From the IMG/VR virus record IMGVR_UViG_2695420646_000004: DNA of 13,283 bases, one strand, 5' to 3'. The notes under the pieces were generated by a model, which was not told the origin of the DNA, made no database searches, and saw only the letters and a list, made by a program, of their open reading frames with translations. Within the stretch, counting starts at the first letter, position 1, and each line of letters begins with the position of its first letter. The DNA comes from a virus (taxonomy: Duplodnaviria; Heunggongvirae; Uroviricota; Caudoviricetes). Position numbers and translations under genes: made by a program. This document shows, one piece after another, positions 871 to 3,545 of the stretch.

Positions 871-1019
871 AAAGTGAGCCAGTCAAATGGAAGGTATCGT
901 TAAACTCACCGGTAGTGTCAGTGGGTCGTCTGAGATGCCTGCATGAGTTATCAGAGCCATCAGTACTTAACTGGTGGCTTTTTTATTGTTGTCAGCTTCC
1001 GGATAACGGGAGACGGGGT

Positions 1020-1653: not shown

Positions 1654-2187
1654 ATGAACACCAAAATCAAATACGGCCTGTCGGCTGCCGTTCTGGCGCT
1701 GATTGCCGCTGGTGCGCCTGCGCCTGACATTCTCGACCAGTTTCTGGATGAAAAGGAAGGTAACCACACCACGGCATACCGTGATGGCGCGGGTATCTGG
1801 ACCATCTGCCGCGGTGCCATCCTGGTGGATGGCAAACCTGTCGTTCCTGGCATGAAGTTGTCGAAGGAAAAATGCGACCGGGTTAACGCCATTGAGCGTG
1901 ATAAGGCGCTGGCATGGGTGGAGAAAAACATCAGAGTGCCATTGAGTGAACCCCAGAAAGCGGGGATCGCGTCATTCTGTCCGTACAACATTGGCCCCGG
2001 TAAGTGTTTTCCGTCGACGTTTTATAAACGAATTAATGCAGGTGATCGCAGGGGAGCGTGTGAGGCGATTCGCTGGTGGATTAAGGACGGTGGCAGGGAC
2101 TGCCGTATTCGCTCAAATAACTGTTACGGTCAGGTATCCCGTCGTGACCAGGAGAGCGCGCTGGCGTGCTGGGGAATCGACAGATAA
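1654..2187 (+). CDS. SAR endolysin (phage lysozyme, T4/P1/phage-21 R21 type, glycoside hydrolase family 24)
   Basis: N-terminal weakly hydrophobic Gly/Ala-rich signal-anchor-release segment (YGLSAAVLALIAAGAPA) followed by the catalytic E-x8-D-x5-T motif (EGNHTTAYRDGAGIWT). Lies downstream of a pinholin, as expected for SAR endolysins. Confidence 0.9.
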   Translation: MNTKIKYGLSAAVLALIAAGAPAPDILDQFLDEKEGNHTTAYRDGAGIWTICRGAILVDGKPVVPGMKLSKEKCDRVNAIERDKALAWVEKNIRVPLSEPQKAGIASFCPYNIGPGKCFPSTFYKRINAGDRRGACEAIRWWIKDGGRDCRIRSNNCYGQVSRRDQESALACWGIDR

Positions 2188-2281
2188 GCAGAATATTTTG
2201 CTAATAAATGACGTTGGCCAAGGCGGATGGATAACACGAAATCCTGCGAACTGGCAAAATGTAAGTGAATAAAAGTAAAAA

Positions 2282-2316
2282 CCCCGTTTGTTGGCAGCAA
2301 GCGGGGTTTTGTTTTT
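2282..2316 (+). terminator. Rho-independent terminator-like hairpin downstream of the endolysin gene
   Basis: CCCCGTTTG (2282-2290) and CAAGCGGGG (2298-2306) form a 9-bp stem with one G-U pair and a 7-nt loop, followed by TTTTGTTTTT. An A-tract precedes it, so it could act in both directions. Confidence 0.55.
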
Positions 2317-2381
2317 ATGGCAGTAAGCTATGGGAGGCTGCCTTGATTGATTTTAGCAAACTGATTAGGGAGTTGCGACTC

Positions 2382-2477
2382 ATGATTAGTCAATTACCAA
2401 ACTGGAAATTTTTGCTGGTCTGGAGCATCCCTTTTTTATGGGTAGTATCCCAGTTAATTGTGGCAATTAAGGGGTAG
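2382..2477 (+). CDS. Candidate micro-ORF A, 31-aa hydrophobic single-TM peptide (MISQLPNWKFLLVWSIPFLWVVSQLIVAIKG)
   Basis: ATG with AGGGAG about 9 nt upstream; below the ORF-track size cut-off; one predicted transmembrane segment. Coding status unproven. Confidence 0.25.
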   Translation: MISQLPNWKFLLVWSIPFLWVVSQLIVAIKG

Positions 2478-2479
2478 CT

Positions 2480-2611
2480 ATGTCAGACAAACTCATAACG
2501 CCGGCAAAGGTCCTGTGTGTGATTGTCGGTATTTCATTTTCACTAATGCTGGTTGCTCTTTTTCTGTCCTTCGCCTGGGTGATGTTGTCTTCGTCGGGGC
2601 TGCTGGGGTGA
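2480..2611 (+). CDS. Candidate micro-ORF B, 43-aa hydrophobic peptide (MSDKLITPAKVLCVIVGISFSLMLVALFLSFAWVMLSSSGLLG)
   Basis: ATG 2 nt after the stop of ORF A, with AAGGGG Shine-Dalgarno 5 nt upstream; strongly hydrophobic core. Confidence 0.35.
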   Translation: MSDKLITPAKVLCVIVGISFSLMLVALFLSFAWVMLSSSGLLG

Positions 2612-2730
2612 CAGTGACTGATGACATCAGCAGAGCGCTGGCTTTTGCTATTAAGTGGGTGGCTGTTGGTATTGCTGTGTCTCCGATGCTGTATGGGCTG
2701 GCAAAACTGGTCATTGCGCTGAAATCGTGA
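2608..2730 (+). CDS. Candidate micro-ORF C, 40-aa hydrophobic peptide (VTVTDDISRALAFAIKWVAVGIAVSPMLYGLAKLVIALKS), GTG start
   Basis: GTG at 2608 overlaps the TGA of ORF B (GTGA coupling). It is the C-terminal part of the 90-aa ORF-track entry 2458-2730, whose N-terminal part overlaps ORF B out of frame and looks non-coding. Confidence 0.3.
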   Translation: MTVTDDISRALAFAIKWVAVGIAVSPMLYGLAKLVIALKS

Positions 2731-2741
2731 ACTTTAAAAAG

Positions 2742-2828
2742 ATGAGTGCTGAACTTATTCGGGCAATGGCATTTGCCATTCGTATTGTGGCCATTGCTGT
2801 TCTGGTCTGGGCAATCCGTTGGTGGTGA
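2742..2828 (+). CDS. Candidate micro-ORF D, 28-aa hydrophobic peptide ([28 protein letters not shown])
   Basis: ATG at 2742, stop TGA 2826-2828 one base before the Rz ATG; weak Shine-Dalgarno (AAAAAG). Confidence 0.25.
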
Positions 2829-2829
2829 T

Positions 2830-3324
2830 ATGAACCGTGTTCTGTGTGTGGTGATTATTGTCCTGCTGGTAGCCTGTGGTGTGCTTAGTCTGGGGCTGAA
2901 TCATTACCGCGATAACGCCATCACCTACAAAGCGCAGCGCGATAAAAAAGTCAGTGAGCTGAAACTGGCGAATGCCACTATTACTGACATGCAGCAGCGC
3001 CAGCGAGATGTCGCTGCGCTTGATGCCAGATACACGAAGGAATTAGCCGATGCGAGAGCTGAAAATGAAACTCTGCGCGCTGATGTTGCCGCTGGTCGTA
3101 AGCGCCTGCGGGTCAACGCCACCTGCCCCGGTACCGTGCGTGAAGCCACCGACACCTCCAGCGTGGATAATGCAACCGGCCCCCGACTGGCAGACACCGC
3201 TGAACGGGATTATTTCATCCTCAGAGAACGGTTGATGACAATGCAGAAGCAGCTGGAAGGGGCGCAGGAATATATCCGCACTCAGTGCACTAAGCTGGCT
3301 TTTTATTATCCGGAGGATACATGA
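2830..3324 (+). CDS. Rz: Rz i-spanin (inner-membrane spanin subunit)
   Basis: Translation from ATG 2830 ([40 protein letters not shown]...[34 protein letters not shown]) aligns along its length with remembered lambda Rz: N-terminal TM, coiled-coil, C-terminal Cys. The ORF-track start at 2746 is an upstream GTG extension judged not real. Confidence 0.9.
3050..3235 (+). CDS. Rz1: Rz1 o-spanin (outer-membrane lipoprotein spanin subunit), embedded in Rz in the +1 frame
   Basis: [61 protein letters not shown] has a lipobox (VSAC) and proline-rich mature region closely resembling lambda Rz1; AAGGA Shine-Dalgarno 9 nt upstream. Confidence 0.85.
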
Positions 3325-3545
3325 AGAAATTACGGGTAACCGTAGAACCTTTTCAGGGAACAATTCCGTTCCGTATTTTGCAGCGTGGTCGTGTTCTTGT
3401 TGAAGGTTCGTTCAGTGGTAAATGTACGCAATTACACTCCCGGACCTTTCAGGTGAATGCCACGAATGAAGAGCTAACCGTGGAGTGTACGATGAATGCC
3501 GCTAAATGCCGCATGGTATCCGCTGCATTACAGCCAGTGTGTTGA
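3321..3545 (+). CDS. Hypothetical 74-aa protein, translationally coupled to Rz
   Basis: ATG overlaps the Rz stop (ATGA) with GGAGGA Shine-Dalgarno 5 nt upstream. Cysteine-containing, non-hydrophobic, no recognised motif. Confidence 0.5.

Follow-up and report, generated by a model that had tools for sequence, protein, structure and literature searches.

Tandem micro-genes for predicted single-pass membrane peptides in a variable slot between the endolysin and spanin genes of lambdoid prophages

The DNA analysed here, hereafter called the window, is a stretch of 13,283 nucleotides (IMG/VR virus record IMGVR_UViG_2695420646_000004) from the late region of an Escherichia coli lambdoid prophage of the phage-21 or Shiga toxin (Stx) phage-like kind, and coordinates given without a locus name are positions in it. 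Between the gene R, which encodes a lysozyme of the signal-anchor-release (SAR) type, and the spanin genes Rz and Rz1, the window carries an intrinsic terminator followed by four tandem micro-open reading frames (micro-ORFs), here named O1 to O4. As far as sequence analysis can go, these four ORFs are genuine selected genes and not chance T-rich DNA, and each of them probably encodes one hydrophobic helix, that is, a single-pass peptide of the inner membrane. Judged from its relatives, which hold one to five such ORFs in varied combinations and orders, the interval between R and Rz is a cargo slot. The slot and its borders are composed as follows.

1654..2187, plus strand: R, SAR-type lysozyme (PF00959, E 1.3e-23), left border of the slot
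2188..2277, plus strand: conserved non-coding spacer 3' of R
2278..2318: intrinsic terminator (hairpin 2278-2310, T-tract up to 2318)
2343..2477, plus strand: O1, 44 aa, TTG start, Shine-Dalgarno (SD) sequence GGGAGG at 2332-2337
2480..2611, plus strand: O2, 43 aa, SD AGGGG at 2470-2474
2608..2730, plus strand: O3, 40 aa, GTG start overlapping the O2 stop
2742..2828, plus strand: O4, 28 aa, stop inside the Rz ribosome-binding site
2830..3324, plus strand: Rz, i-spanin (PF03245, E 1.8e-50), right border of the slot

The 642 bp that separate the stop of R (2187) from the start of Rz (2830) agree with the approximately 640 bp given in the original prediction, which was made from the letters of the sequence alone and described a strong terminator hairpin followed by four packed ORFs of 28-43 aa. 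All four ORFs are present (2382..2477, 31 aa; 2480..2611; 2608..2730; 2742..2828), but the start of the first most likely has to be moved from the ATG to TTG 2343. The tight packing was also seen, with a gap of 2 nt between O1 and O2, a GTGA overlap (-4 nt) between O2 and O3 and 1 nt between O4 and Rz, to which an unmentioned gap of 11 nt between O3 and O4 has to be added. Both expected SD sequences were located, AGGGG in front of O2 and GGGAGG in front of the in-frame TTG 2343 upstream of the ATG.

Evidence that the four ORFs are genes

The interval is rich in T (34% against 22.5% for the whole window), and it had been left open whether it was simply non-coding DNA that reads as hydrophobic by chance. 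In every one of the four ORFs, T is enriched specifically at codon position 2 (0.42-0.53), and transmembrane (TM)-like windows were found in the plus-strand frames only, all three minus-strand frames lacking them. The count of open TM-like stretches was five, compared with a mean of 1.17 over 2000 shuffles, none of which (0/2000) reached that number. As expected, each peptide has one predicted TM helix (19-residue window, Kyte-Doolittle mean 1.9-2.9), the best means being 2.19 for O1, 2.87 for O2, 1.90 for O3 and 2.21 for O4; the stretch in O3 is weakly hydrophobic and has two lysines within it.

The conservation and synonymous-substitution analysis that had been proposed as a check gave a ratio of nonsynonymous to synonymous substitution rates (dN/dS) that was low only in the proposed frames of the four ORFs, at 0.10-0.6 in frame versus about 0.6-7 off frame, with an excess of third-position changes. 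Homologues retain length, start and SD in E. coli, Salmonella and Citrobacter, and each ORF matches one PHROG family, four in all and every one of unknown function; with O3 and O4 counted together as paralogues, the micro-genes represent three families. The codon-position bias, the in-frame purifying selection, the conserved starts and lengths and the homologues in other genera together argue that genes for small single-TM peptides have indeed been inserted into the lysis cassette. We consider it very improbable that the interval is non-coding T-rich DNA, or that it consists of decayed fragments of one bigger membrane-protein gene, in either case hydrophobic by chance. The T-richness itself, the lack of good SDs of their own in front of O3 and O4 of the window, and occasional frameshifted alleles would fit such an origin, but the shuffles, the bias of T towards position 2 and dN/dS clearly below 1 in the proposed frames alone speak against chance. 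Descent of the four ORFs from a single decayed multi-TM gene was rejected, since in other phages each of them stands alone, has a start to itself and takes a different place in the order.

O1 and O2

O1 is a 44-aa single-pass peptide, MIDFSKLIRELRLMISQLPNWKFLLVWSIPFLWVVSQLIVAIKG, read from TTG 2343, which lies five bases after GGGAGG. This TTG is most likely the start, with ATG 2382 being internal, because the 45-position profile of phrog_6632 (E 1.3e-12) and the starts of the homologues align there. In the Salmonella phages SPN3UB and SEN34 and in E. coli loci of the B type, homologues retain xIDFSKLIRExR at the N-terminus and have an equivalent GTG start, preceded by AAGGGAGAA or AAAGGAG. 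A nonsense codon lies upstream of the internal ATG in L064, one of the B-type loci, so that a shorter form of O1 is conceivable. The NCBI Prokaryotic Genome Annotation Pipeline (PGAP) calls instead a 70-aa ORF (GTG 2265..2477) that crosses the terminator; we regard this model as implausible. The dN/dS of O1 is 0.11-0.6 in frame, 0.6-0.8 in the +1 frame and 1.9-3.5 in the +2 frame.

O2, a 43-aa single-pass peptide (MSDKLITPAKVLCVIVGISFSLMLVALFLSFAWVMLSSSGLLG) that begins 2 nt past the O1 stop, matches phrog_4906 (E 5e-21) and has 101 database homologues, nearly all of 43-49 aa and 62-95% identical. Among pairs diverged by no more than 25% its dN/dS is 0.25-0.5, versus 0.7-1.9 off frame. Depending on the phage, O2 is preceded by O1, by the long form of O3 described below or by an antirepressor gene. 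Some alleles have suffered frameshifts at a hot spot, a run of five T inside O2 (2559-2563): single-nucleotide changes in it create a new O2 C-terminus in three loci (L075, L080 and P0075), and in another (P0192) they fuse O2 to O3, giving an 83-aa protein with two helices. In the window, the O3 frame stays open back to 2458.

O3 and O4

O3 is a 40-aa peptide, VTVTDDISRALAFAIKWVAVGIAVSPMLYGLAKLVIALKS, that matches phrog_1115 (E 4e-25) and has 121 homologues across E. coli, E. marmotae and Salmonella. Elsewhere O3 occurs in a long form of 48 or 60 aa and O4 in a long form of 37 or 50 aa (O3-long and O4-long), which have in common an internal start with a GAGG SD and a 5' region that codes for KYKRxxLRLxxMK. 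From these alignments, O3 and O4 are paralogues (...R-A-x-A-F-A-I-[KR]...), truncated at the 5' end relative to the long forms. The portion of O3 retained in the window is exactly the core conserved between genera, and comparison with Salmonella gives 6, 3 and 21 differences at codon positions 1, 2 and 3, with dN/dS of 0.10-0.15 in frame and above 1.7 in the other frames. O3 of the window has neither an SD nor an N-terminus of its own, and its initiation would depend on coupling to O2 through the GTGA overlap.

The 28-aa O4 matches phrog_4493 (E 3.8e-6) and aligns with both O3 and O4-long; against the latter its dN/dS is 0.25-0.35, compared with 0.6-1.4 off frame, on the thin data that 28 codons provide. 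It has 43 homologues, Citrobacter included, and at least 998 contigs have the identical 28-aa sequence in their annotation; the exact O2 sequence of the window is likewise annotated on hundreds of contigs. The last codons and stop of O4 (TGGTGGTGA) constitute the ribosome-binding site of Rz, and the SD of O4 itself is weak. O4 is thus the least secure of the four ORFs, and O3 and O4 are the least certain to be expressed in the window.

In the leader of O4-long or O3-long, slots of the D type (L047, L060 and L006) and a Salmonella prophage (L087, 2969-3003) carry an upstream ORF of eight codons, MGREVLSL or MCREVYSL, with its own SD. The TGA of this ORF and the GTG with which the long form starts overlap as GTGA, like the O2/O3 junction of the window.

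A variable slot with shared ends

The content of the slot was compared in 80 IMG/VR loci anchored on R (at least 95% identical) and in a second set of 80 loci anchored on O3-long. The R-anchored loci, to which one Stx phage was added, fall into the following classes.

About 645 bp: O1-O2-O3-O4, the window type (27 R-anchored loci)
About 301 bp: a single O1-like ORF ending in IRWW (22 R-anchored loci)
About 490 bp: O3-long, then O2 (19 R-anchored loci)
About 338 bp: O4-long alone (4 R-anchored loci)
About 996 bp: an antirepressor gene and an O2 homologue of 44-49 aa, the Stx-phage type (5 loci, one of which, O104:H4 phage P13374, is outside the sample)
Singletons: O3-long-O4(short), O1-O2 and frameshifted variants (few loci)

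In the O3-long-anchored set, 74 of the 80 loci have the order R-O3-long-O2-Rz, and one (L168) has R-O3-long-O2-O3-O4-Rz, an arrangement that, on its gene order, is an evident intermediate towards that of the window. R and Rz overlap in a single sampled locus (L056), the slot being about 300 to 1000 bp long in the remaining ones. They also overlap, as rrrQ-rzpQ without insert, in Qin, the sole lysis cassette of strain K-12 that was checked. The original prediction took R to be followed directly by Rz in phage 21 and lambda, and this succession was confirmed for Qin. The phage-21-like Stx1 phage H-19B has an R-Rz gap of 298 bp that holds an unannotated O1 micro-ORF of the B type. Among 5426 complete E. 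coli genomes, at least 80% of the exact interval of the window is present in 587 and part of it in 2078 (about 38%), with 5,116 matching places in the E. coli genomes; strains WP7-S17-ESBL-04 and MLI121 are examples with the arrangement of the window. Many E. coli and Salmonella prophages, among them Stx phages, appear to have the cassette set in their endolysin-spanin slot, and they make up a large fraction of the total.

Common to all classes are the spacer and its invariant block, the terminator and a leader that follows the pattern CTGACCTTGAxxAAGGCAAGGGAGAA. They also have the same junction, ...TGGTGGTGAxATG, where the last codons of the final micro-ORF make the ribosome-binding site of Rz. 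These shared ends look like linkers for module exchange. Gene-sized modules would recombine between phages at the conserved linkers, the upstream one consisting of the terminator and the SD-bearing leader and the downstream one of ...RWW-stop-ATG of Rz; terminator, leader and ORF seem to move together as one unit. The insertion into the lysis cassette had been recognised in the original prediction, which missed the shuffling of the slot, the origin of O3 and O4 as truncated paralogues, the probable TTG start of O1, the terminator that travels with the cassettes and the bearing of its upstream position on late expression.

Spacer and terminator

The spacer consists of an invariant block, GGATAACACGAAATCCTGCGAACTG, at 2231-2255 and a variable stretch of about 20 nt, and it is kept at 84-100% identity in nearly all 80 R-anchored loci, irrespective of what lies downstream. 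The terminator that follows, correctly anticipated as a strong hairpin, has a 15-pair stem (2278-2310) followed by TTTTGTTTTT, folds at -22.6 kcal/mol and is the strongest terminator-like site found by a scan of the first 5 kb. With an A-tract to the left and a T-tract to the right of it, it could work in both directions. Its stem is invariant among 18 E. coli variants, and in SPN3UB, the Salmonella prophage L087, SEN34 and L091 the homologous micro-ORFs follow hairpins whose sequence differs (-19 to -24 kcal/mol), so that a hairpin lies 20-45 nt upstream of the micro-ORF in all five contexts that were folded. The element therefore has the hairpin and U-tract of an intrinsic terminator, and its structure is kept among relatives even where the sequence has changed.

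Several searches were made for a structured RNA in this region. RNAalifold detected no covariation outside the terminator in the spacer and terminator, and we make no claim of a structured small RNA (sRNA); Rfam at gathering thresholds gave no match in the window. Aligned over 63 nt, the end of the spacer and the terminator (2254-2316) match the 3' two-thirds of K-12 OhsC at 73% identity. Assignment to that family was rejected, as the plus-strand score of the window (21.6 bits) is below the gathering score of 50 and the match is mostly terminator; the likeness could reflect shared ancestry or convergence of terminators. Four independent slot variants (L087 2833-2974, L094 1856-1997, L065 3101-3190 and L005 1567-1655) gave sub-threshold matches to the rimP leader family (27-36 bits, gathering score 47), all on the minus strand and spanning terminator and leader. 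This assignment too was rejected, all matches being below threshold; they would fit a structured minus-strand RNA, or merely a bidirectional terminator. The prophage sRNAs PasA and PasC sit between esterase and holin (preprint 10.64898/2026.05.13.724894), not after R, and were rejected as content of the R-Rz interval. Rfam matches to STnc100 lie upstream of the holin in homologous loci (67.8 bits in L087), and published work on svsR showed no link to the lysis region.

Transcription and a possible antisense layer

A crude consensus scan of 15 slot variants (the window and 14 others) found no plus-strand promoter between the terminator and the ORFs. In lambdoid phages, RNA polymerase modified by Q reads through terminators. 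Because the terminator lies upstream of the ORFs and no promoter was found between them, expression is probably Q-dependent and confined to late lytic growth, not lysogeny. Only Q-antiterminated polymerase would reach the ORFs, and the peptides would be made together with pinholin, SAR endolysin and spanins.

On the minus strand, the same variants contain 13 promoter-like sites in 12 of the 15, compared with 0 on the plus strand and an expectation of about 0.3 per region per strand. All of these sites lie inside a micro-ORF and are directed at the terminator. In O3-long and O4-long the -10 hexamer TATACT is the antisense of a conserved AAGTATA encoding Lys-Tyr, and a -35 hexamer is always there and depends on the lineage (TAGTCA, TGGACA or TTGGCC). 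The 48-nt 5' region of O3-long and O4-long is identical between E. coli and Salmonella, whereas the TM-coding part differs by 25%. The window has one speculative candidate of this kind:

2457..2486, minus strand: CTGACA-18-CACAAT, candidate antisense promoter directed through O1 at the terminator, the -10 hexamer being preceded by TG

From such sites, antisense RNAs some 80-180 nt long would cover leader and start, which, taken with hydrophobic peptides shorter than 60 aa, is the layout of type I toxin-antitoxin systems; we regard this as a lead only. Under that explanation the units would be toxin-antitoxin-like, a membrane-damaging peptide being held in check by an antisense RNA that starts from a promoter in the ORF and ends at the upstream bidirectional terminator. 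The peptides are indeed hydrophobic and shorter than 60 aa, and the strand bias of the sites, the TATACT hexamer opposite AAGTATA, the identical 48-nt region, the A- and T-tracts flanking the terminator and the likeness of spacer and terminator to OhsC, the antitoxin sRNA of the hydrophobic toxin ShoB, would all be in keeping with it. The promoter matches, however, amount to just 9-10 of 12 positions, and the loci are related, so that the counts are not independent (about six groups, giving roughly p = 0.04); the candidate of the window, with CACAAT as -10 hexamer, is poor, and SPN3UB, Rac-SA53 and some C-type loci lack a minus-strand site. The OhsC match is the sub-threshold one described above, conservation of the 5' nucleotides is equally explained by a recombination linker or recent exchange, and typical toxin mRNAs have a promoter of their own, of which none was found here. 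Taking these points together, we think a toxin-antitoxin nature of the cassettes quite unlikely. Equally much of a long shot is a wider picture suggested by the same comparisons, in which lambdoid and other temperate enterobacterial phages would exchange promoter-less, terminator-headed micro-cassettes, type I-toxin-like modules built into late operons. Each would encode one hydrophobic helix and be guarded by a short antisense RNA running from inside the ORF to the shared bidirectional terminator, and one to five of them, stacked between endolysin and spanin, would combinatorially set the membrane-depolarisation and lysis clock of phages with pinholin and SAR endolysin.

Occurrence beyond this slot

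In Salmonella, O3-long separates Rz from a SAR-type lysozyme other than R and is again preceded by a spacer containing the motif GGATAACAC, a terminator and a leader. In one locus (L115) it lies in a cassette with canonical holins and an endolysin of the M15-peptidase type, just before a small lipoprotein gene, and in another (L104) about 1 kb downstream of a lysis cassette of the lambda-S type, together with another 49-aa TM ORF and an O4-like ORF. An O3-like gene follows a tail-fibre assembly gene in L091, with terminators on both flanks. O1 is present between lysozyme and Rz of SPN3UB, where it is unannotated, and O1-like genes lie within the baseplate clusters of SEN34 and Rac-SA53. On this sampling, the association of the families with lysis cassettes is strong but not exclusive.

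Some of these loci contain further small genes. A conserved micro-ORF of 32-36 aa, for instance MAAMICFVAAFMLACDGRSGWGWFLLVGLIVM, with two short hydrophobic segments around GWGW, overlaps the 3' end of the SAR lysozyme gene in Salmonella (L087, 2713-2811; SPN3UB, L094, about 1735-1845); it is unannotated, and the window does not have it. In two further phage types, a small lipoprotein gene (MTRKHWTHRMPRTAAKWALVAILLPFLLVGC...) follows O3-long; the features concerned lie at 2718-2867 and 2952-3227 in L104, where they include the 49-aa TM ORF, and at 2692-2874 in L115. The products may be spanin-like or exclusion lipoproteins; neither these lipoproteins nor the 49-aa TM ORF of L104 had a Pfam match.

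What the peptides may do

All databases label the peptides as hypothetical or putative transmembrane proteins. Searches against Pfam, NCBIfam and the functionally annotated PHROGs gave no holin, antiholin, releasin or toxin match, the upstream S21-type holin being the only one to hit PF04971, and PADLOC gave 0 matches for six peptides at E up to 1.

The reading we favour is that the peptides are dispensable accessories in the inner membrane that would tune envelope events at the end of infection, their likeliest target being the timing or sharpness of lysis by pinholin, SAR endolysin and spanins. The chaining of the ORFs, through the 2-nt gap, the GTGA overlap and the O4 stop in the Rz ribosome-binding site, would couple the micro-genes to each other and to Rz. 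A role in modulating lysis is suggested because the families occur mostly in lysis cassettes, of several types, are chained to Rz, would be expressed only late and would be located in the membrane. To the package as a whole, comprising the cargo slot, four genuine micro-genes, late expression and lysis-modulating inner-membrane peptides, we give an even chance; the step of lysis tuning in itself is a tentative proposal, less likely than not.

Several observations weigh against this reading. The promoter scan was crude, and a real non-consensus promoter could have escaped it; O3 and O4 of the window have lost their own 5' ends and SDs and may be poorly translated; and some alleles carry frameshifts or nonsense codons. 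No family of holins, antiholins, releasins, defence proteins or toxins resembles the peptides, and literature searches by topic, accession and PHROG identifier turned up nothing about them. Nor do the families occur in lysis cassettes alone, as the baseplate genes of SEN34 and Rac-SA53 and the tail-fibre locus L091 show, and the slot can also hold an unrelated antirepressor gene, a distribution that fits generic cargo as well as a role in lysis.

Generic cargo could take the form of moron-like genes that protect the host or the infected cell, their inner-membrane products blocking adsorption or DNA entry of other phages and playing no part in lysis. The variable and dispensable content of the slot is compatible with that, as are the copies among baseplate and tail-fibre genes, where morons typically sit, and the small single-pass inner-membrane proteins gp15 of HK97 and Imm of T4 act in this way. 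Expression in the lysogen is, however, not expected from ORFs that have a terminator upstream and no promoter of their own; most occurrences are in lysis cassettes, and PADLOC found nothing, so that superinfection exclusion as the sole role seems doubtful. The ORFs might also act mainly in cis, as a ribosome relay across the 640-bp gap that keeps translation of Rz/Rz1 coupled and the mRNA covered. The tight chaining would serve such a relay, the last stop lying within the Rz ribosome-binding site (GGTGGTGAxATG) in all architectures, and so would the GTGA-coupled eight-codon ORF in the leaders of D-type and Salmonella loci. Against it, purifying selection acts on the amino-acid sequences, the hydrophobic helices are kept across genera, the ORFs are retained where no Rz follows, and Q-modified polymerase avoids polarity without translation; we therefore hold a mainly cis-acting role to be improbable. 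Modulation of lysis by the peptides themselves is still the reading we prefer.

Comparison with known systems

LysA of phage P2 is a larger protein with several TM segments. It would be the closest positional analogue of the micro-ORFs. As one of the extra membrane proteins of lysis cassettes, to which LydB, LydC and LydD of P1 also belong, it is encoded by a non-essential small membrane-protein gene at the endolysin-spanin position, is co-expressed with its neighbours and reportedly affects lysis timing (PMC9025707). No sequence similarity between LysA and the micro-ORF peptides was detected, and the slot described here instead encodes between one and five single-helix peptides (28-60 aa), each with an ORF to itself and shuffled from phage to phage.

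The releasin gp25 of phage Mu (DUF2730) is a small membrane-anchored protein encoded near a SAR endolysin, whose release it controls, and is 99 aa long with an N-out/C-in topology and a 73-aa acidic cytoplasmic domain (PMC9239132). Most hosts of the micro-ORFs likewise use SAR endolysins. In contrast to gp25, the micro-ORF peptides (28-60 aa) are nearly without extramembrane domain, and O3-long also accompanies a soluble endolysin of the M15-peptidase type. Identity with the Mu releasin was rejected, as there was no match to DUF2730 and the size and domain features differ.

Known antiholins are either alternative-start products of holin genes or members of defined families. The micro-ORF peptides resemble S107 of lambda, S21-71 and RI of T4 in being small membrane proteins encoded in lysis cassettes, where the known antiholins set the lysis clock, but they have no similarity to the S21 pinholin of the window or to any holin family. 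An antiholin-like role was among those suggested in the original prediction.

Classical morons are expressed in the lysogen; each is headed by a promoter of its own and closed by a terminator on the downstream side. As with the morons of lambdoid phages such as HK97 (gp15), the slot contains extra DNA between late genes that are adjacent in related phages (K-12 Qin, L056), this DNA is exchanged, and it encodes small inner-membrane proteins; HK97 gp15 would be the closest analogue as a small inner-membrane cargo protein. The layout, however, is reversed, the micro-cassettes having no detected promoter upstream and a terminator upstream rather than downstream. The type I systems ShoB/OhsC, Ibs/Sib and SymE/SymR share with the cassettes hydrophobic peptides of less than 60 aa and, as candidates, antisense RNAs running over the 5' end to a nearby terminator, and the terminator region of the window resembles OhsC in sequence. 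They differ in that the cassettes have no toxin promoter and consist of several tandem ORFs in a late operon, with antisense RNA predicted from weak consensus matches.

Neighbouring genes

Outside the slot, the late region of the window contains the following features.

133-870: sialate-esterase-like gene, C-terminal part
953-981, plus strand: strong terminator-like hairpin, between the sialate-esterase-like gene and the pinholin gene (870-1020)
About 1020-1235: phage-21-type (S21) pinholin (PF04971)
1240-1590: YdfR/DUF1327 gene, between pinholin and endolysin
3050-3235, plus strand: Rz1, o-spanin embedded in Rz, lipobox LVVSAC (translation)

The N-terminus of R, MNTKIKYGLSAAVLALIAAGAPAP, has weak hydrophobicity and is SAR-like. 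The YdfR/DUF1327 gene is present in most, not all, related loci, independently of how the R-Rz slot is filled; no linkage of slot content with holin type or YdfR presence was found, all sampled loci having a pinholin of the S21 type. Downstream of Rz there are a YnfO-like gene, an HNH endonuclease gene and terminase genes. An ORF of 74 aa (3321-3545) that overlaps the Rz stop matches only positions 100-172 of the 291-position profile of phrog_2571 and is probably a gene remnant.

Significance

The existence of the ORFs is not new, since they are already in databases as hypothetical proteins. What appears to be undescribed is that they are real selected genes, that they belong to shuffled terminator-headed cassettes, that O3 and O4 are truncated paralogues, and the possible antisense layer. 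Small-protein screens were done in K-12, whose Qin cassette has no R-Rz insert. Annotation pipelines mishandle such genes, making over-long calls through the terminator, missing TTG and GTG starts or leaving ORFs unannotated.

The S-R-Rz/Rz1 cassette is the textbook model of phage lysis, yet parts of the insert are found in about 38% of complete E. coli genomes, and H-19B and the O104:H4 phage are examples of Stx phages with content of this type. With short peptides, slots that provide natural "deletions" and combinations, and inducible lysogens at hand, this is an easy system to work with. As antisense-controlled toxins or exclusion factors, the peptides would form a new class of phage cargo of very small size; should they tune the timing of lysis or the energisation of the membrane, they would be unrecognised players in phage release and, for Stx phages, in toxin release.

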